Source of the DNA: a virus
Strand: one strand, 5' to 3'
DNA: 56,421 bases
Virus record (IMG/VR): IMGVR_UViG_3300027887_000001
Location: 1 to 56,421 of that record
The notes beneath the pieces are model-generated. The model ran no database searches, was not told where the DNA came from, and saw only the letters and a program-made list of their open reading frames with translations. Of the stretch, positions 5,481 through 56,421 are shown piece by piece. The translations under genes and the position numbers were made by a program. Positions within the stretch are counted from its first letter, which is position 1; every line of letters begins with the position of its first letter.

Positions 5481-5688
5481 GATCGTAACACGTGTGTTGT
5501 TAGTAACATACACCGAGGACGATGAAACTCAGGATATCACGCTCAAAGATGTTCGCGAGCAGCGTCCCAACGATGTAGTCGAGCTACCGATCAAGTATCT
5601 CGACAACGGTACCCGAGGAGTAATACTGTTTCGTAGTCGAGATGACGAGACAGGTTGCTCATTACTGATCATCGAGAACAAGTTCTAG
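5473..5688 (+). CDS. Hypothetical protein (71 aa)
   Basis: Start moved to ATG 5473 behind ggagga (5462-5467). Confidence 0.55.
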   Translation: MPKIVTRVLLVTYTEDDETQDITLKDVREQRPNDVVELPIKYLDNGTRGVILFRSRDDETGCSLLIIENKF

Positions 5689-23166: not shown

Positions 23167-23898
23167 ATGACAAGAACAGTGTTATTGTTTTCGGGTGGCT
23201 TAGATAGTACTTCGTTGCTAGCCCAACTAATGACAACAGAGGAAGAAATCCTTGCGCTGTCGTTCAAGTATGGCTCTCTTCACGAAGGTTCTGAGATGTT
23301 GGCAGCTGCAAATGTGATAAAGTATTACGAAGGAGTTGCCCACGAAGTGATTCAGTTACCCATCGAAATATTTGCAGGTGGTAGCTCGGCTTTACTAGGA
23401 CAGACTGAAATGCCTAACGAGGAATACCACGATATCACCAAAGAGACTCCTTCAGCAACAGTAGTGCCATTTCGTAATGCTAATCTCATTTCGATGGCTG
23501 TCTCAGTTGCGAACTCTCGTGGCTTCGATCAAGTTGCCATTGCGAACCATGCAACGGACTCGCAAGGATGGGCCTACCCAGATTGCACACCAGAATTTAT
23601 GGGTCCGATGGCGGCAGCAGTATACATTGGAACGATGAGAGCTGTTCGGCTGTACACACCCTTCCAGTTCCTGACGAAGGCTGATATTGTGACGCTAGCT
23701 GCTAGGCACAGGGCGCCATTGTATTTGACTCGTTCGTGTTATCGAGGTGGTATGATTGCATGTGGGGAGTGCCCTACATGCTTAGAGCGCATTACGGCTT
23801 TCGTAATTGCTGGCTACGTTGACCCAATCAAGTACGTTCTCGAACCTAGAGCTTGGGACATTGTTGGTCTCAAAGAGTTTCCGAAAGAAGAGAGGTGA
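23167..23898 (+). CDS. queC: 7-cyano-7-deazaguanine synthase QueC
   Basis: PP-loop VLLFSGGLDSTS, VVPFRNANL, YPDCTPEF, C-terminal SCYRGGMIACGECPTCLERITAF..YVDP. Confidence 0.9.
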   Translation: MTRTVLLFSGGLDSTSLLAQLMTTEEEILALSFKYGSLHEGSEMLAAANVIKYYEGVAHEVIQLPIEIFAGGSSALLGQTEMPNEEYHDITKETPSATVVPFRNANLISMAVSVANSRGFDQVAIANHATDSQGWAYPDCTPEFMGPMAAAVYIGTMRAVRLYTPFQFLTKADIVTLAARHRAPLYLTRSCYRGGMIACGECPTCLERITAFVIAGYVDPIKYVLEPRAWDIVGLKEFPKEER

Positions 23899-26315: not shown

Positions 26316-26534
26316 ATGTCTACAAAAGCGATATCAAGGATTATGTTGTATAACTACATATACTACTTGCAAGAGCTTGTGCCCTTTTCTTGGATAGAAG
26401 GTATGAACATGCTTGAGCCTAATGAGACCTTGCCTATACAAGGAATTGTTTACTCACAGCATCCGGACACAGCCTTCCCTTTGGAAGTGCTTGCGTTACG
26501 TAAAGGAGACTCCGATGACCTATCAAGTAAATGA
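26316..26534 (+). CDS. Questionable small ORF (72 aa)
   Basis: ggaga lies only 3 nt before the ATG. The ORF overlaps the queE start by 20 nt. The region could instead be a leader. Confidence 0.25.
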   Translation: MSTKAISRIMLYNYIYYLQELVPFSWIEGMNMLEPNETLPIQGIVYSQHPDTAFPLEVLALRKGDSDDLSSK

Positions 26535-27153
26535 AATCTTTCGATCAGTGCAAGGAGAAGGACTTCTAGCTGGCACTCCCGCAACCTTTATCCGCTTACA
26601 GGGATGCACTGTAGGATGTCCTTGGTGCGATACGAAGTACACATGGAATAAAGGCGGTACCAAGCTTGGGGTTGATGAGATACTCGAAATAGCATATCCA
26701 CTTCAGCCTCTAGCTGTGATTACTGGGGGTGAACCTACATTGTACAATCTTGATGAGCTAATCAAGGGTCTGTGGGATGTGGGTCAGAAGCGCTATGGAT
26801 ATACTTTTGGGGTGCAACTCGAAACATCAGGTCAACAAGATCTCAAAGGCGAGCTTAGGCCCAACTGGATCACGTGGTCACCTAAACCAAACCTGAATTA
26901 CAATGCACCTGAGGCACTCATAAAGCAGGTTTCCGAAGTCAAGTGGGTTATAGATGACGAGATTGAGTTGGACACAATACTTACTCTAGCTGAATGGTTC
27001 AATACACATACTAGACATAAGGTTCCGTTTGTGTTGATGCCAGAAGGAACTCCTCCTACTCAGGAACACGTTGATAAGGCTCTCGAGTGGGTTGCAAATC
27101 GTAAGCACTTCCGATACGGCGATCGCATTCAATGGCGGATAGGAGTAAAATGA
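26515..27153 (+). CDS. queE: 7-carboxy-7-deazaguanine synthase QueE (radical SAM)
   Basis: Start at ATG 26515 after aaaggaga. EIFRSVQGEGLLAGTPATFIRLQGCTVGCPWCDTKY contains the CX3CX2C radical-SAM cluster. Confidence 0.85.
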   Translation: MTYQVNEIFRSVQGEGLLAGTPATFIRLQGCTVGCPWCDTKYTWNKGGTKLGVDEILEIAYPLQPLAVITGGEPTLYNLDELIKGLWDVGQKRYGYTFGVQLETSGQQDLKGELRPNWITWSPKPNLNYNAPEALIKQVSEVKWVIDDEIELDTILTLAEWFNTHTRHKVPFVLMPEGTPPTQEHVDKALEWVANRKHFRYGDRIQWRIGVK

Positions 27154-28647: not shown

Positions 28648-28908
28648 ATGCACATCGAAGTGAAGGATCCGCTCAAGAAAGACATTGTAGGAGTATTGTG
28701 TATCGAACGAGATTCACACTCCGCAATTATCCTAGAAGCCGAAATCGAGTACTTGGAGACTCTGGTATCGATTGCCAAGTCTCAGAAGGTGCCATTAGTT
28801 ACGCTTGTGGTACCCCATGGTGCGGTTCCTGAACTACAAGCACTAGGTTGGCAAGTTGATGACACCCGCGTTGTGCTTACGAAAGGCGGTAACGGTAATG
28901 GATCCTGA
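28648..28908 (+). CDS. Hypothetical protein (86 aa)
   Basis: aggaggtaatATG RBS. Sits between the dpdA-like gene and the polymerase. Confidence 0.5.
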   Translation: MHIEVKDPLKKDIVGVLCIERDSHSAIILEAEIEYLETLVSIAKSQKVPLVTLVVPHGAVPELQALGWQVDDTRVVLTKGGNGNGS

Positions 28909-31369
28909 AGAGAAGACATTCGAAGAGATATGGGGCATTCCAGATCCTGATGAAGAGGCTGTTGCGCCTAAAGCTCCAGGTGCTAAGTGTGCAACATGTC
29001 CTTTACGCCATCAACCTTACGTACCACACTCAGGTTCATTCGATGCATCGCTAATCATTATTGGTGAGGCACCTGGTGTAAAGGAAGTTGAGTTAGGTGC
29101 ACCATTTGTAGGACCTTCGGGTCAGCTTCTAGATACTGCTATCGAATGGGGTGGCGGTGATCCGGAAGACACATTCAGAACGAACATCGTTTGTTGCAAA
29201 CCGATTAGTCGTTCACCTGATATGGCTTCTGTAGGATGCTGTCATGACCGCCTGATAAAAGAACTCGAACAGTGTACATCGGATAAGATTCTCGTATTAG
29301 GTATGACAGCTACAGACGCCTTGGATTTTGCACCACAGCAAGGTGTGTGGCAGCCTTGGGGCAGTGCACACGCGCTAGTTGCCTGGCATCCGGCTTACAT
29401 CCTTCGTGACAAACCCGAAGAGGCTCCGATGTTCCTAGCTTGCGTTGCCTCAGCGGTGAAGGGGCCAGGATTTATGAAGAAGTTCAATCCTCAGCCTGTC
29501 TTCTGTAACACAGTAGAAGACTTGCAGGAGCAGTTCGCAAAATGTCCTGAGGGCTCTTGGGTAGCGCTAGATATTGAGACCGATCAGATCCAATGGTTCA
29601 ATACACCCAAGAAGTTAGCAGATGGTATCATCATGCTCCAGCTGTGCTGGGATGCGGATTATGCTGTTATCATATCGGATGCATTGATATACGATACACC
29701 CGAAGCAGTTATCTGTATCAATCAGTTCCTTGCAAAGCGTAAGATATGTGGACATAACGGGAAGTTTGACCAAGTCTTTCTGAAGTCTCATGTAGGTATT
29801 GACTTCTGGTTGGAATTTGATACTATGCTTGCTCACTATATCCTGAACGAGAATCTCAAGCACGGCTTGAAGGCGATAGCGCAACTAGAGTTTGGGATGT
29901 TCGATTACGAAGAGAAGATGTTGCACACATATCTCACTAGCCGTAATGATAGATACTCCAAGATCCCTTACGAAGAGTTTGCAGTATATGGTGGTAAGGA
30001 TGTTGCAGTAACATTAGCCCTTCGAGAGATATTCGAGGCGCGCCTTCGTAAGGAAGGGCAATATGATATGCCGTTCATGGAAATCATAATGCCTGCAGCG
30101 AATATGCTCACACAAGTAGAGTTGAAAGGTATGCATATCGACCCATCCAGGTTCGGAGCTATCTCCGCTGAATTCAAACAGCGAATCGAAGCTTCGACAG
30201 CAAAAATGCGGGAATTGGGAAACGCACCAAATCTAAATCCGAACTCGACTCAGCAGTTGGCTGTATTACTTTACGACGAGATGCATGCGCCTATTCCACA
30301 AGGCCGACAGTTCAAGGCTCGATCAACAAATAAGGATGCCTTGCAGAAGCTAAAGAAGATGACACATGATCCTGTTGTCCTGGAGTTCATAAAAGAACTC
30401 ACCGAGTATCGTCGTGTTGAAAAAATGCACAACTCATATGTAGATAACCTGCGAGATGTCATAGACATAGATAATCGTGTGCATGGCACGTTCCAAATCT
30501 TTGGAACTGAAGTAGGTAGGTTGTCCGTCAGAGATCCAGCGTTACAGACGATACCCAGACCTGATGATAGATTAGGATGGCTCATCCGAAGTATGTTTAC
30601 TGCTTCACCTGGTAACGTATTAGTCATCGGTGACTATAGTCAAGCAGAACTACGCGTATTGGCTTGTTACTCAAACGAGCCGTTCTTACTCGATGTTTAT
30701 GCGCACGGACGAGATCTTCATACTGAAGTTGCACTCAAGATGTTCGGTGAAGTGTTTACCAAGGCTGATCGAGCCAAATGCAAGATGTTCAACTTCTCAT
30801 ATGTATATGGTGGCACTGAGTATTCGTTTGCAGAAGATGCAGGTCTACCTATTGAGATAGCACATCAGTTCGTTCAAGACTATAATCGGATGATGCCTAC
30901 AGCATTAGCCTGGAAGCGAAAGCAATTCGAGACGATGCGTAAGGAAGGTGAGGTCTCTACCATCTTTGGTAGGAAGAGACGCTTCCCACTAATTGTGGAA
31001 TCCATTCTTGGCGACGTTCGCAAAGCAAGTACGCATATGGTGATATCATCTACAGCATCAGACTTAGACTTGATTTCGGCACTTGAGTTACACAATGAAG
31101 GTGTACCTATTGTACTATTAGTACACGACAGCATCATCGCGGAAGTGCCAATAGCACAGGGCAAAGACATTGGCCTGCGAATGTTTGCCAAGATGAAGGA
31201 AGTAGGAACTAGGTACTTCCCACAGATTCCGTGGGTTGCAGATGTTGAAGTACGCGATAGATGGTGTGGTGGAGATTACGAAGCGTACAATGGACCTGAA
31301 GAAGGTTGGGTCTTCCATTCAGGTGAGAAGGAAAACGATACTATGGCAGACTTAACGGTGCACGTATGA
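28898..31369 (+). CDS. Family A DNA polymerase with 3'-5' exonuclease and an N-terminal family-4 UDG-like domain
   Basis: UDG4 motifs: GEAPGVKE..GAPFVGPSGQLL, WHPAYILR, Cys CATCP/CCKP. Exo motifs: ALDIETD, GHNGKFD, YGGKDV. Pol motifs: GDYSQAELRVLA, RAKCKMFNFSYVYGG, LLVHDS. Confidence 0.9.
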   Translation: MDPEEKTFEEIWGIPDPDEEAVAPKAPGAKCATCPLRHQPYVPHSGSFDASLIIIGEAPGVKEVELGAPFVGPSGQLLDTAIEWGGGDPEDTFRTNIVCCKPISRSPDMASVGCCHDRLIKELEQCTSDKILVLGMTATDALDFAPQQGVWQPWGSAHALVAWHPAYILRDKPEEAPMFLACVASAVKGPGFMKKFNPQPVFCNTVEDLQEQFAKCPEGSWVALDIETDQIQWFNTPKKLADGIIMLQLCWDADYAVIISDALIYDTPEAVICINQFLAKRKICGHNGKFDQVFLKSHVGIDFWLEFDTMLAHYILNENLKHGLKAIAQLEFGMFDYEEKMLHTYLTSRNDRYSKIPYEEFAVYGGKDVAVTLALREIFEARLRKEGQYDMPFMEIIMPAANMLTQVELKGMHIDPSRFGAISAEFKQRIEASTAKMRELGNAPNLNPNSTQQLAVLLYDEMHAPIPQGRQFKARSTNKDALQKLKKMTHDPVVLEFIKELTEYRRVEKMHNSYVDNLRDVIDIDNRVHGTFQIFGTEVGRLSVRDPALQTIPRPDDRLGWLIRSMFTASPGNVLVIGDYSQAELRVLACYSNEPFLLDVYAHGRDLHTEVALKMFGEVFTKADRAKCKMFNFSYVYGGTEYSFAEDAGLPIEIAHQFVQDYNRMMPTALAWKRKQFETMRKEGEVSTIFGRKRRFPLIVESILGDVRKASTHMVISSTASDLDLISALELHNEGVPIVLLVHDSIIAEVPIAQGKDIGLRMFAKMKEVGTRYFPQIPWVADVEVRDRWCGGDYEAYNGPEEGWVFHSGEKENDTMADLTVHV

Positions 31370-52589: not shown

Positions 52590-53042
52590 ATGGATCCGGC
52601 TAAGCTAACAGAAGCATTGCAAATGTTCGACAGTGGGATGACTGTGGCAGCAATTGCAGAAGAATTGGAAATATCCACTCAGACTATTCGATTAGGTCTG
52701 AAGGGAAGTGGTCGCAGTTTAGTAAAACCGTCAGCACATCAAGCAGATGAAGAAGCCATAGTCATTGCTTATCAAAACGACGAACCTATACCTGCGATAA
52801 TGCAACAATATGAACTTACCTATACAACATTGTATTCGATCCTTCGTAGACACAATGTTCCCACTAGGAAGTTCGTAGCTGCACCATCTCAAGCAGATCG
52901 TCTCAAGGTTGCAGTTGAAATGTATCAGCGCAACGTCGTACTCTGGAAGATCAAACAGGAAACAGGTATCGCACAACCAACTCTTCATAACGAGTTACAC
53001 CGACTAGGTATTCCCCTACGTCGTCAAAGAATGGAGGTATGA
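52590..53042 (+). CDS. DNA-binding protein with three tandem HTH units
   Basis: Three copies of a pattern like GMTVAAIAEELEISTQTIRLGL, PIPAIMQQYELTYTTLYSILRRHNVPTR and WKIKQETGIAQPTLHNELHRLGIPLR. Confidence 0.55.
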   Translation: MDPAKLTEALQMFDSGMTVAAIAEELEISTQTIRLGLKGSGRSLVKPSAHQADEEAIVIAYQNDEPIPAIMQQYELTYTTLYSILRRHNVPTRKFVAAPSQADRLKVAVEMYQRNVVLWKIKQETGIAQPTLHNELHRLGIPLRRQRMEV

Positions 53043-53714: not shown

Positions 53715-53886
53715 CACAGGCGCTGGGTGTCTGCGCAGAAGTTGTTGCCCTGCGTAGCGTGCTACGTGTTTGCGTGAGAGTATGAAGGCGCGGGTGTTTG
53801 TGGTGGCGACGTGGAAGGACACGCGAGGCGGCTTGGTCCGTTATCCAAGAGAGTAGGTATCAAGGCCTACCCACCAGTAATGTCTT

Positions 53887-53930
53887 AGAGGTCATCAGAT
53901 GCAATGTCGGTCTGATGGCCTCTTCTTTTG
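53887..53930 (+). terminator. Intrinsic terminator
   Basis: 13-bp stem agaggtcatcaga / tctgatggcctct (one G-U pair), followed by tcttttg. Confidence 0.7.
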
Positions 53931-54217
53931 CTTCGGCACCGACGATGTGATGTAGGGACGAAACGTGTACGGGGGCTTTTTCGGGTGACGCATGAGTTTG
54001 GGGTTGGATTGGTTTGGAATGATGCAGGGGTACCCTGTCGTTTATTTGTAGGGGGTAATTTTTCAGTTTTTCAGTTTTTACTTACTTAGCTCTAAACATG
54101 ATGAAAAGTGACGTTAGACGTGATGAATGATACGATGGTGATGACGCTCTTTCGTGCAATAATGGTATCAAGGTAAGAGACATTCACTCTTGCTTGGCGC
54201 AAAGGACGCCTAATCTC

Positions 54218-54505
54218 ATGTCACAGTACAATGTTTCACCAGAGAAAGTTTACACGCTTGACCAGTTATGCACGCTCACAGGCTTCACACGTGTATACCT
54301 ACACAAGGCAATGAAGCAATTCAAGACGCTAAAGTATACAGCGGGCTTTGTGCAAGGCACGAAGATACCTTGCAACTTCATCAAGGGAAGTGACTTCCTG
54401 ACTTTCCGCAAAGCAATTGATGAGAAGTCGACACGCAAGTCCGCTCACATCCTGAGCGAGAGTGAATACGCTGAATATCAGCGACTTGTGAAGTCAAGCA
54501 AGTAA
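54218..54505 (+). CDS. Excisionase/MerR-type HTH DNA-binding protein (paralog 3 of 4)
   Basis: Start at ATG 54218. VYTLDQLCTLTGFTRVYLHKAMKQ HTH, then SDFLTF, a basic linker and HILSESEYAEY. Confidence 0.5.
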   Translation: MSQYNVSPEKVYTLDQLCTLTGFTRVYLHKAMKQFKTLKYTAGFVQGTKIPCNFIKGSDFLTFRKAIDEKSTRKSAHILSESEYAEYQRLVKSSK

Positions 54506-54517
54506 TATCAGAGCAAA

Positions 54518-54726: not shown

Positions 54727-54760
54727 CAGACTTGCTCACGAAAGTGAGCAAGTCTGGTTT
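54727..54760 (+). terminator. Intrinsic terminator (13-bp stem, GAAA tetraloop)
   Basis: cagacttgctcac GAAA gtgagcaagtctg, followed by gttt. Confidence 0.6.
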
Positions 54761-54838
54761 CGAAAGTAAAAAGTGAAAAAGAAAAAAGTGGAAAATGAAT
54801 TTGGCCCCTCGCGCCTATATGGCGCTTGGGCTAAGAAC

Positions 54839-54876
54839 GGGCGCCCCGCCATGCCCATCCACGTAGGTGCCACGCA
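54839..54876 (+). repeat. GC-rich repeat unit I (GGGCGCCCCGCC...GCCACGCA)
   Basis: 12-nt identity with 55459-55470, and roughly three-quarters identity by eye over about 38 nt with 55459-55494. Confidence 0.7.
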
Positions 54877-55015
54877 ACCATGCCACGCGTCCCATGCTAC
54901 CCGCAATAGTCACGGTACCCTACCTTCACTGTGTCCACCAGTGCGCTTGGCCCTCCGCATGCCCACCCGCATAGGCAACCATCATAGGTAACCATCCCCC
55001 GCGCGATACCGCTAC

Positions 55016-55047
55016 CCGCAAAAAGAGATACCCTTTCGGGTATCTCT
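55016..55047 (-). terminator. Intrinsic terminator for the minus-strand zinc-ribbon gene
   Basis: agagataccc / gggtatctct stem (GAAA loop on the minus strand), followed by TTTT on the minus strand. Confidence 0.65.
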
Positions 55048-55056
55048 CCTTTGGTA

Positions 55057-55257
55057 CTACGGCTTCTGCACCACGTACAGAATCCTTGGTGGAGGAACCA
55101 TGTTCGGATACTCCACTGTATAGCACGGGTGACAGAGATCTCTACCGTAGGGGTAGGTCTCGTCCTTAGGACCGTATTCCAAATCCTGAACTAACACCCA
55201 TTCACCACATCGATTACAATGCTCCCACTGTCCGTTCTCATCGATCACGCCGCTCAT
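55057..55257 (-). CDS. Zinc-ribbon protein (66 aa), the only leftward gene in this region
   Basis: aaaggagagtaacATG RBS. CNRCGEW...CHPC pairs. Has its own promoter-like element and terminator. Confidence 0.6.
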   Translation of the reverse strand: MSGVIDENGQWEHCNRCGEWVLVQDLEYGPKDETYPYGRDLCHPCYTVEYPNMVPPPRILYVVQKP

Positions 55258-55304
55258 GTTACTCTCCTTTGCTGGTGATCCTCATCCGAAGGATCTATTA
55301 TAAT

Positions 55305-55340
55305 ATAATTATAATATAGGAGCCTGGGTCTTTTCTAAGT
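55305..55340 (-). promoter_or_regulatory. Conserved TATAAT-rich element B (inverted copy of element A), probable leftward promoter
   Basis: The reverse complement acttagaaaagacccaggctcctatattataattat matches 285-320 at 33/36 positions. Weaker similarity extends about 35 nt further upstream. Confidence 0.5.
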
Positions 55341-55458
55341 AACATCGGACTCCCCCAATTTAGGACCCAAGGCCAACTGCGCGCGCCCCGCATCGCCCCA
55401 CGCAAAAGGCGCCCCGCAATGATTTTACACAATCAACCAATCAACTATGACTCCCGGT

Positions 55459-55494
55459 GGGCGCCCCGCCTGCCAACCACCAAGGCGCCACGCA
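55459..55494 (+). repeat. GC-rich repeat unit II (GGGCGCCCCGCC...GCCACGCA)
   Basis: See unit I. Embedded in a C-rich non-coding stretch, 55376-55560. Confidence 0.7.
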
Positions 55495-55593
55495 TAGGCC
55501 CCCCGCCGCGCGCGACAAGCACAGGGCGCCTTACCGTTGCCATGCACTCCGTTACCAGCCTAGGTGCCTACGATTGGGGGAGTCTTTGGACCC

Positions 55594-55622
55594 TTGTGGA
55601 AATAAGCGAGATACATTATAAT
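55594..55622 (+). promoter_or_regulatory. Sigma70-type promoter (TTGTGG-17 nt-TATAAT)
   Basis: -35 at 55594-55599 within ggacccttgtgg, and -10 at 55617-55622. The upstream attggggg...ctttgga resembles the 7849-7869 context. Confidence 0.6.
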
Positions 55623-55695
55623 TATAATAATTCACCCGTACCAATAAATAAAAAGGTGCGGAGGGCCCCAACAGGGACATTCAGAACAAGGAGTA

Positions 55696-56079
55696 ATGAT
55701 GAACACCGAGTCCAAGAAACAGAACGCCAGCACCACCCCCGAGCCGATGATGACGATCAAAGACATCCTGACCAAGTCCGGGCTCTCAGGGATCTACGTT
55801 CGCAAAGCCATCTCCAATGGCGACCTGCCCAGTGTGCTCGTTCAAGTGGGTGCGACCAAAGTCTACCGGCGCGAGATCAAAGCCGCGGACTTCGAAACCT
55901 GGCGCGCTACCCGAAAGAATAGCCGACGGGAAGATGGCAGAGGCCGCTCGATCTTGTACGCGACACCCGAGGAACTCACCAAGATCAAGTCGCTCTTAGC
56001 GAGTAACAACGTCGAGGCACTCGTTGAGAAACCGAAGCCCCAGGTGCATAAGCCGAAGGTCGAAGCCCCTAAGGCGTAG
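55696..56079 (+). CDS. Excisionase/MerR-type HTH DNA-binding protein (paralog 4 of 4)
   Basis: aaggagtaATG RBS. MTIKDILTKSGLSGIYVRKAISNGDLP HTH, then ADFETW, a basic linker, ILYATPEELTKI and a Lys/Pro tail. Confidence 0.6.
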   Translation: MMNTESKKQNASTTPEPMMTIKDILTKSGLSGIYVRKAISNGDLPSVLVQVGATKVYRREIKAADFETWRATRKNSRREDGRGRSILYATPEELTKIKSLLASNNVEALVEKPKPQVHKPKVEAPKA

Positions 56080-56090
56080 CTCCCACCACT

Positions 56091-56120
56091 GAACCCCGCC
56101 CAACAGCGGGGTTCTCTTCT
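56091..56120 (+). terminator. Intrinsic terminator
   Basis: gaaccccgc / gcggggttc 9-bp stem, followed by tcttct. Confidence 0.6.
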
Positions 56121-56322
56121 CCCCACCGCGGCGACGCGCACTGATTCGGGGTTTACAACGCATATCTTAGGCTTCCCGCCTGAGCAAACAGAAACCATTT
56201 CCTCAATCAAACGGCTATACCTCGTGATCCGCCTTTTCGACCTCCATCGACGGTCCAAGTACTAAACAACTCCCATCATAGAGAGTCCCTTTCAAACATG
56301 GACCAAGCAGATCACATATCAT

Positions 56323-56421
56323 ATATATATATGATAATAATACATAAACACTTCTACCACCAACACAGATTTTTATACTTGCATATGCTTATAACTTTCA
56401 TTTCTGAATCAAATGACCATT
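56323..56421. repeat. Terminal direct repeat / assembly overlap, identical to 1-99
   Basis: See the first feature. Preceded by a (TA)n palindrome, tcatatatatatatga, at the junction. Confidence 0.95.

Follow-up and report, generated by a model that had tools for sequence, protein, structure and literature searches.

Strand-oriented GC-rich motif arrays as candidate operators in the early control region of an uncultivated phage

The early control region of an uncultivated phage (IMG/VR virus record IMGVR_UViG_3300027887_000001; the whole stretch analyzed, 56,421 nucleotides, is referred to here as the window) contains two GC-rich blocks of short repeated motifs, one on either side of a small antisense zinc-ribbon gene, and the question raised by this locus is what such a pair of blocks is for. 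A preliminary description had proposed an iteron-type replication origin or another protein-array binding site. The more general of these readings, a site at which protein binds in an array, is the best supported, the blocks being oriented, non-coding, devoid of RNA structure and conserved in position. More specifically, the blocks may represent cis-acting operators, bound by protein in arrays, through which the early promoters and the antisense gene are controlled, an interpretation to which a probability of roughly one half is attached. The candidate site has a consensus of about GGCGCC(C/A)CGCA(A/T), always in the same orientation, and would be recognized by a sequence-specific phage DNA-binding protein. 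Operator arrays are favored because the blocks are placed at early promoters, arrays recur within genomes, no Rep-like gene is a neighbor, and genes for small helix-turn-helix (HTH) proteins resembling Xis and BldC are adjacent, among them one encoding a protein of 126 residues (HTH-126).

Composition, orientation and setting of the two arrays

The two blocks and the longest unit that they share are as follows.

54800–55020, + strand: left motif array, C-rich on the + strand, between two convergent terminators
54839–54876, + strand: 38-nt shared unit, with its partner at 55459–55494 in the right array
55376–55560, + strand: right motif array, between divergent promoter modules

GC content is 0.633 in the left block and 0.659 in the right, with GC skews of −0.30 and −0.31, against genome values of 0.475 and +0.01, and the two blocks are the genome's only 200-nt intervals with a GC content of at least 0.60 and a skew of −0.25 or below. 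The 12-mer GGGCGCCCCGCC is present in exactly two copies in the genome, at 54839 and 55459, both on the + strand. It opens the 38-nt unit, the longest shared between the blocks, whose two copies are 82% identical, lie 620 nt apart and align with a score of 42, compared with a maximum of 28 in 100 shuffles. Eight + strand copies of CMCGCA (CCCGCA or CACGCA) were located at 54871, 54900, 54966, 55015, 55387, 55399, 55413 and 55489, and the − strand of either block contains none. Dinucleotide-preserving shuffles of the blocks yielded 1.6 ± 1.2 copies, and none of 2000 reached the observed number. The longer motif GCGCC[CA]CGC was found five times against 0.12 in the same type of shuffle (again reached in 0 of 2000); all five copies are on the + strand inside the blocks, and there are none elsewhere in the genome on either strand. 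The motifs had been chosen by eye beforehand, so these shuffle counts are not formal P-values and overstate formal significance; the effect is still large, and the enrichment is more than chance. A position weight matrix (PWM) trained on the five GCGCC[CA]CGC copies and applied with a cut-off of at least 10 bits produced nine + strand matches genome-wide, eight of them in the two blocks (three of these outside the training set). Its sole − strand match, at 278, is beside the third copy of a promoter module described below.

Within the left array, C[CAT]CGC[ACG] cores are positioned at 54808, 54845, 54871, 54884, 54900, 54966, 54998 and 55015, giving spacings of 37, 26, 13, 16, 66, 32 and 17 bp, and PWM matches are at 54840, 54866 and 54949; the palindrome GCGCCTATATGGCGC occupies 54811–54825. 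The right array contains GCGCC[CA]CGC at 55383, 55409, 55461 and 55485 and CMCGC cores at 55387, 55399, 55413, 55465, 55489 and 55502, with spacings of 12, 14, 52, 24 and 13 bp. The repeat unit is one of about 12–14 nt, on the same strand throughout and irregularly spaced (11–17 bp or multiples).

Both blocks are non-coding. In the right block this is shown directly, because its natural alleles, described below, differ in length by −2 nt, and one also by +1 nt, so that every open reading frame (ORF) crossing the block is broken. ORFs of both blocks gave no match to any Pfam or PHROG family, and the gene callers of the source assemblies called no gene in either block. Coding ORFs in the blocks, tried as a candidate, were rejected on the frame-breaking alleles and the lack of family matches.

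The blocks are embedded in the following promoters, terminators and genes.

54727–54756, + strand: terminator-like hairpin at the end of the rightward early operon (13-bp perfect stem, GAAA loop, −24.2 kcal/mol, z = −7.3)
54760–54799, strand not assigned: A-tract block of AAAAAG repeats
55024–55047, − strand: terminator of the zinc-ribbon gene (10-bp stem, 4-nt loop, T5; −23.2 kcal/mol)
55057–55257, − strand: antisense zinc-ribbon gene encoding 66 residues with CxxC...CxxC (four Cys); 11 homologues in other phage contigs
55290–55362, − strand: early-promoter module copy 1, driving the zinc-ribbon gene (ATTGGGGGAGTC-N10-TTAGAAA-N18-TATAAT; TAGAAA-18-TATAAT in the consensus scan, 10/12)
55568–55643, + strand: early-promoter module copy 2, driving HTH-126, with a 12-nt upstream element that forms an inverted pair with that of copy 1
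258–333, + strand: early-promoter module copy 3, driving the gene at 392–838, with GGCGCC at 273 just upstream and CCCGCAAA at 198

The promoter module spans about 65 nt, consisting of ATTGGGGGAGTC, about 10 nt, a TTAGAAA-like −35 element, about 18 nt and TATAATTATAAT, and each of its three genome copies is upstream of a gene. The right block is enclosed by a perfect 12-nt inverted repeat (GACTCCCCCAAT / ATTGGGGGAGTC) together with AT-rich TATAAT palindromes. As this inverted repeat is the upstream part of the promoter module, the right block is located between two divergent promoters, and the AT-rich 24-nt palindromes adjoining it are the −10 regions of the module. The left block lies between the hairpin at 54727–54756, belonging to the rightward operon, and that at 55047–55024, belonging to the zinc-ribbon gene on the − strand. 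Searches of IMG/VR with the zinc-ribbon protein, HTH-126 and the inverted-repeat pair returned no match.

The preliminary description is borne out on each of these points. It had claimed GC-rich blocks that are C-rich on the top strand, a shared unit of about 38 nt starting with an identical 12-mer and eight same-strand CCCGCA/CACGCA copies, all of which are found at the positions it gave; the shuffled control and the genome-wide comparison of GC and GC skew, in which both blocks stand out, agree with it. The blocks that it thought looked non-coding are so, and the setting it described, comprising HTH paralogs, an A-tract and a leftward gene with its own promoter-like site and terminator, is present in full.

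A further promoter-like site was scored on the − strand at 55644–55615 (TTGGTA-18-TATAAT, 10/12). It shares the palindromic −10 of the HTH-126 promoter and is scored because this palindrome reads alike on both strands. Should it function, transcription from it would run leftward across the right array and on into the zinc-ribbon gene, so that some leftward transcription of the right block may occur.

At the level of the genome, the ends of the window are identical over 99 nt (1–99 = 56323–56421) and metagenome contigs run straight through the junction; the window is therefore a complete, circularly assembled phage genome of ~56.3 kb (about 56,322 bp). Genes for a T4-type large terminase (TerL) and an SPP1-type portal are on the − strand, whilst the + strand encodes an SNF2 helicase, a PD-(D/E)XK nuclease, a primase-like protein, a family A polymerase fused to a uracil-DNA glycosylase (UDG)-like domain, QueC and a radical-SAM enzyme. 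Both arrays sit in the early control region, with packaging genes to one side and replication genes to the other, and GC skew in the region tracks gene orientation. There was no DNA match between the genome and cultured phages, TerL was <30% identical to that of any of them, and INPHARED searches at the DNA and protein levels with the array region and with HTH-126 gave no match.

Some observations concern other parts of this genome. The genes for QueC, the radical-SAM enzyme and the polymerase–UDG fusion are located at 23167–23898, 26413–27153 and 28856–31369 (coordinates listed jointly). The radical-SAM enzyme, possibly QueE, has a sub-threshold Pfam match (27.0 bits against a cut-off of 29.5), and the presence of queuosine-pathway genes suggests that the phage DNA carries 7-deazaguanine modifications. 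At 53715–54190, before HTH paralog 1, a third long non-coding region of 476 nt has a G-rich + strand (skew +0.28), a polarity opposite to that of the arrays; in L020, an 88%-identical relative, it is more diverged than the surrounding genes and partly unalignable. This stretch was considered as a mirror copy of the arrays and rejected, as it has no significant similarity to them and no PWM match.

Conserved layout, changing motifs and a polymorphic cassette

Relatives were collected as large-terminase relatives in IMG/VR and as zinc-ribbon homologues in public assemblies. The TerL of L029 is 62% identical to that of the window phage, and in the orientation of the window its early region reads as a same-family HTH gene, a terminator, a GC-rich block containing five GGCGA(C/G)TCGC-like copies, an antisense gene, divergent promoters around an eight-copy block, and then further units of block, promoter and gene together with an orthologue of HTH-126. 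The GGCGA(C/G)TCGC motif has 16 copies there in all, and the antisense gene encodes an acidic protein of 85 residues unrelated to the zinc ribbon. L022 shares this layout in part. It has two blocks with eight and ten copies of the L029 motif spaced at 18–27 bp, mostly 19–22 bp; the first is directly upstream of an early promoter (TTGTAA-N18-TATAAT), and in the case of the second, C-rich and then AT-rich sequence intervenes before the next promoter is reached. In L045 the arrays on either side of an antisense zinc-ribbon gene (54% identical) consist of a third motif (TCGTTACGAC / CTCGTTCGCT), and the one downstream lies between two terminators; in L006, L046 and L047 other repeated motifs were observed upstream of TATAAT promoters. 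Around the promoter modules, the window and L043 do not have their genes in the same order. Judged from the sequences compared, the architecture is conserved whilst the motif is lineage-specific, with the same motif reused in separate blocks of one genome. This comparison, another check on the preliminary description, accords with its general reading of a protein-array binding site, and a conserved layout carrying a lineage-specific motif is the pattern expected of sites that co-evolve with a sequence-specific protein.

A scan of IMG/VR for paired long motifs gave 105 loci, and those inspected were unrelated (15-nt-periodic, pentapeptide-repeat-like sequences and other tandem repeats in higher-GC viruses). 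Dense CTTACACTG-type repeats on both strands, iteron- or operator-like in appearance, were noted upstream of the packaging genes at 5600–5900 of L008, a distant phage with a zinc-ribbon homologue, which places them in a neighborhood equivalent to that of the arrays.

Variation within the phage population is concentrated in the right array, at the following feature.

55415–55484, strand not assigned: hypervariable cassette, 70 nt in allele A and 68 nt in allele B

Metagenome contigs encoding an identical zinc-ribbon protein match the window perfectly over 1.3–2.7 kb except at 55415–55484. Allele A is carried by the window and by L012 (which covers 55463 onward only), and allele B by three JGI contigs, L002, L003 and L005; a scan of JGI metagenomes for contigs spanning the cassette contributed just one allele-B contig. 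Aligned with each other, the alleles are identical at 50 of 77 columns (~65%), with six gap runs (11 gap columns) and all substitution types. Outside the cassette, the real differences in these contigs amount to one single-nucleotide polymorphism and one C-run indel, both in the right block, which is the only polymorphic site across several kb; at 54511 L003 also has an N, an ambiguous base. Logan contigs from four runs either end at 55414 (L001 and L004) or begin at 55485 (L009–L011), and these breakpoints coincide exactly with the first and last positions at which A and B differ. Such breaks at the cassette borders, seen in assemblies of at least four samples, are the behavior expected of a de Bruijn assembler where both alleles co-occur in a sample. 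In SRR5246787 the flanking contigs extend without branching over 10.4 kb to one side of the cassette and 7.2 kb to the other.

Two elements survive in the otherwise diverged cassette, namely the CCCGC core of its internal site and TCAAC..TCAACT, and the site at 55408 lacks its CGC core in allele B. Allele A also contains, at 55424–55451, TTTACA-N16-TATGAC on the + strand and TGTAAAATCAT on the − strand, an element absent from allele B; L006 and L046 have GTAAAATCA-like elements in their intergenic modules, and the L029 array contains one as well. The cassette is most simply explained as a short recombination patch that ends in motif copies and was probably derived from a diverged relative such as L020. 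The recovered fragment of L020 stops short of the array blocks, and divergence is higher in the non-coding block that it overlaps than in the genes; no match was obtained when HTH paralog 1 was used to search for homologues, so the array region of the L020 lineage was not recovered.

Other origins of the cassette were considered and rejected. An inversion or invertible switch does not fit, as B is co-linear with A at ~65% identity and is not its reverse complement. Intragenomic gene conversion would require a donor, and no copy exists anywhere in the genome. Mutagenesis by a diversity-generating retroelement is at odds with the occurrence of all substitution types and six gap runs and with the lack of a template copy, and no reverse transcriptase was found among the ten larger + strand ORFs scanned. 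A CRISPR-like (clustered regularly interspaced short palindromic repeat) spacer was likewise rejected.

It is distinctly unlikely that the cassette represents a maintained specificity polymorphism, in which alternative operator sets swapped at motif copies coexist in natural populations of an otherwise clonal phage. The alleles could then define different regulatory or cross-immunity types, because B destroys one site and lacks the internal TTTACA/TAAAAT element whilst A keeps both, or they could evade a host factor that targets this DNA.

Candidate binding proteins and the operator interpretation

Two genes for small HTH proteins flank the arrays.

54218–54505, + strand: HTH paralog 1, 95 residues from the ATG at 54218 (TTG start at 54194 in the ORF list), upstream of the left array; a 95-residue gene is called in the source assemblies
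55699–56079, + strand: HTH-126, small winged-helix protein with a predicted Xis/BldC/Cox-like fold and candidate array binder; 126-residue product on the record, AF2 model

HTH paralog 1 shows 25–27% identity to the HTH-126 family, the array-flanking HTH genes being paralogs. In the AlphaFold model of HTH-126, residues 17–71 have a predicted local distance difference test (pLDDT) value of about 80 and the order beta-alpha-alpha-beta-beta-alpha, and the best local fold matches are BldC (TMt 0.73–0.78), the Xis of mycobacteriophage Pukovnik (0.70), RacA and P2 Cox. A weak PHROG match was obtained to the excisionase family phrog_66 (E = 0.004), and a profile search of PDB sequences retrieved the excisionase TorI only, at a non-significant level. 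HTH-126 is thus modeled as a MerR-like winged-helix protein without effector or coiled-coil domains, encoded near the arrays. Orthologues of the array-flanking HTH genes are present in L022, L029 and L043, and in L022 and L029 they lie within a few kb of the arrays. Another candidate binder is the product of the first gene of the rightward early operon (52590–53042), a protein of 150 residues matched in two or three stretches by several overlapping Pfam HTH families (HTH_23, HTH_28 and HTH_7; phrog_1303).

In the mechanism proposed for operator arrays, the right array fills the space between divergent early promoters, one directed toward the zinc-ribbon gene and the other toward the Xis/BldC-like HTH gene, whilst the left array sits just past the antisense gene at its 3' end, with terminators insulating it to left and right. 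One of the adjacent Xis/BldC/Cox-like paralogs is the most plausible candidate for a small winged-helix protein that would polymerize head-to-tail on the direct repeats, and it is this mode of assembly that is proposed to account for the strand asymmetry of the arrays. The resulting filament would set the activity of the flanking promoters, and the left and right arrays may loop together around the antisense gene.

Systems of this type are known. BldC of Streptomyces forms head-to-tail multimers on direct repeats, the number of which varies (PMC5859096), Apl of phage 186 binds direct repeats between the early promoters pR and pL (PMC7498355), and Gp36 of phage D29, a MerR-like Xis homologue, binds GC-rich AGGCGGC-N13-AGGCGGC direct repeats and represses phage genes (PMC12266134). 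Like the arrays bound by Apl, P2 Cox, lambda-type Xis, BldC and Gp36, those of the window are short same-orientation repeats at or between early phage promoters with small winged-helix genes of that fold encoded beside them, and like the D29 Gp36 sites they are GC-rich. Unlike those arrays, they comprise ~6–8 sites per block in two blocks 400–600 bp apart, one of them far from promoters, and are spaced at 11–17 bp or multiples rather than at one helical turn. Site-to-site distances for protein contact in this class are 9–11 bp, or 20 bp for D29 Gp36, compared with 12–52 bp in the right block and 13–66 bp in the left. No integrase or att site was found in the part of the genome's ORFs that was scanned.

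The overall arrangement also recalls phage operators that interact by looping, such as lambda OL/OR, which flank cI-rex, and 186 FL/FR, which flank pR/pL. As in these, two clusters of sites bracket a gene that opposes the early operons, with one cluster in a divergent promoter region. In the window, unlike lambda and 186, the bracketed gene encodes a zinc ribbon of 66 residues, looping is purely hypothetical and lysogeny is without evidence.

Several points weigh against operator arrays. Site spacing is irregular, unlike the one-turn spacing of Apl or Xis sites or the regular 19–22 bp of L022, and the core of the motif shared by L022 and L029 is palindromic, which is easier to reconcile with a dimeric binder than with a monomer binding head-to-tail. 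The left array adjoins no promoter; a purely promoter-proximal operator role therefore fails for it, and looping is an added assumption. With respect to the candidate binder, the E-values of the HTH-126 fold search are weak (0.03–0.3) despite the good local TM-scores, and the model was built on an alignment of three sequences with a mean pLDDT of 65. The coupling of arrays to HTH genes is loose, because no Xis-like gene was present in the 4.3 kb seen of L045 and L043 has the HTH gene without an analogue of the right array. Finally, binding of protein to the arrays, the identity of the binder and the regulatory outcome are all inferred.

Replication origin, spacer and RNA as alternatives

The principal alternative, considered unlikely, is that the blocks are iteron-type replication elements, an origin with a second control or enhancer array in the manner of P4 ori/crr or P1 incC/incA, bound by a phage initiator or the primase-helicase. 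Iteron arrays are characteristic of theta replicons, including P1 (incC/incA), F, R6K, lambda ori and P4 ori/crr. In common with these, the window has direct repeats confined to one strand in two separate blocks that flank a gene, as in P1/F-type replicons, and the phage encodes its own primase-like protein and family A polymerase. The arrays of L022, with 8–10 copies mostly at 19–22 bp and the second followed by C-rich sequence and then the AT-rich element described below, are iteron-like, and the terminators that shield the left array from transcription on either side, in L045 as well as in the window, suit a DNA-level function other than promoter control. Against an origin, each genome has two to three arrays, and most of these immediately precede an early promoter. 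No Rep-type initiator was detected in Pfam and PHROG scans of the neighboring genes, which encode the 66-residue zinc ribbon and the winged-helix proteins of 95 and 126 residues. Iterons are regular, helically phased repeats of ~17–22 bp, unlike the ~12–14-nt units of the window with their irregular spacing of 11–55 bp, and the right block's AT-rich borders are −10 regions belonging to the three-copy promoter module. DnaA boxes, tried as a sign of an origin, were rejected, with none in the region and none above chance in the genome.

A different AT-rich element also counts against an origin at the arrays. It extends over 56296–56421 and continues into 100–185, with a GC content of about 0.29–0.33 and nested inverted repeats, namely a 37-nt imperfect pair (4–40/149–185) around a perfect 12-nt pair (61–72/115–126). 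This element is about 85–90% identical to L043:60–290, even though the L043 HTH protein is only 60% identical and the flanks are unalignable, which makes it (56296–56421 plus 100–175) the stretch whose DNA sequence is best conserved in this region, by a wide margin. It is ~740 bp from the right block, beyond the HTH gene, and in L043 it is directly upstream of the HTH gene, the position taken by the right array in the window. The segment 56296–56421 plus 100–175 is accordingly a strong candidate, and a better one than the arrays, for the origin, or it may be another cis element.

A second alternative is that the blocks have no sequence-specific ligand and are fast-evolving spacers or insulators, with repeats arising by slippage and recombination, that lie between transcription units and serve solely as GC-rich buffers separating AT-rich promoters or as module-shuffling junctions. 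Such spacers would be consistent with a motif that is different in every lineage, with non-coding blocks that diverge faster than genes in the 88%-identical L020, with a right block that is the sole polymorphic site across several kb and with the differing gene order of the window and L043 around promoter modules, as expected of recombination junctions. A parallel is provided by the PeSLs of T4-type phages, mobile cassettes of promoter and terminator stem-loop that mediate modular shuffling. The window resembles these in its repeated early-region promoter modules and the altered gene order around them, and differs in that it has GC-rich motif arrays where PeSLs consist of promoter and terminator stem-loop. 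This explanation is nevertheless very unlikely. One motif is kept in two separate blocks and beside a third promoter, orientation is strictly one-stranded, the CCCGC core survives within the diverged cassette, and L022 and L029 share one motif across 16–18 copies, with a regular spacing of ~20 bp in L022 that is unexpected for neutral DNA.

It is highly improbable that the blocks are transcribed and act as RNA, either as a structured non-coding RNA, a possibility raised in the preliminary description, or as a long 5' leader of the zinc-ribbon mRNA in which the G-rich strand is read from the 55644–55615 site. This − strand promoter-like site (10/12) would read into the right block, and a 256-nt region including the inverted repeat around that block folds with a z-score of about −3.3 on both strands. 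However, the stability is due to the flanking promoter-module inverted repeat and terminators, since the array cores alone fold like shuffles, with z-scores on the two strands of −0.6 and −0.7 in the right block and +0.1 and −0.4 in the left. A structured RNA closed by the 12-nt inverted repeat was therefore rejected, the repeat being part of the three-copy promoter module. Rfam searches at gathering and permissive thresholds (E ≤ 10) gave no relevant match, as did a tRNA/tmRNA search, and comparison of alleles A and B as RNA yielded two compensated pairs only and no coherent conserved helix in the cassette. The left block, moreover, is outside both flanking terminators. These data do not support the structured RNA.

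Bottom-strand G-quadruplexes, also suggested in the preliminary description, or top-strand i-motifs acting as structural signals are barely credible, for despite the strong C/G strand asymmetry and several G3–G6 runs in both blocks, neither contains a quadruplex motif of four G3+ runs with loops of up to 12 nt. The genome's only site of that kind is at 56066–56101 on the − strand, just past the HTH-126 stop codon. Near-identical repeats of at least 23 nt with unique spacers, as in a CRISPR-like mini-array, were not found in the blocks, where the conserved unit is ~10–14 nt.

The arrays belong to a known kind, direct-repeat operator or iteron arrays, and it is their layout and the localized cassette polymorphism that raise interest. 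If they are operators, they would extend head-to-tail winged-helix regulation to lytic-type environmental phages; if they are iterons, the origin type of this lineage would be identified. The cassette illustrates that, where a phage population is otherwise clonal, variation can be greatest within such an array, and lineage-specific motifs in a conserved layout offer a natural experiment in the co-evolution of protein and DNA specificity. For a phage lineage known solely from metagenomes, the present analysis provides a testable map of the early control region, taking in the promoter module with its repeats, both oriented arrays of sites, the insulated antisense gene and the candidate binders of Xis/BldC-like type. 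It is conceivable, though distinctly unlikely, that the conserved unit of array, antisense gene and array, with its lineage-specific motifs, constitutes an undescribed early genetic switch in this uncultivated lineage.

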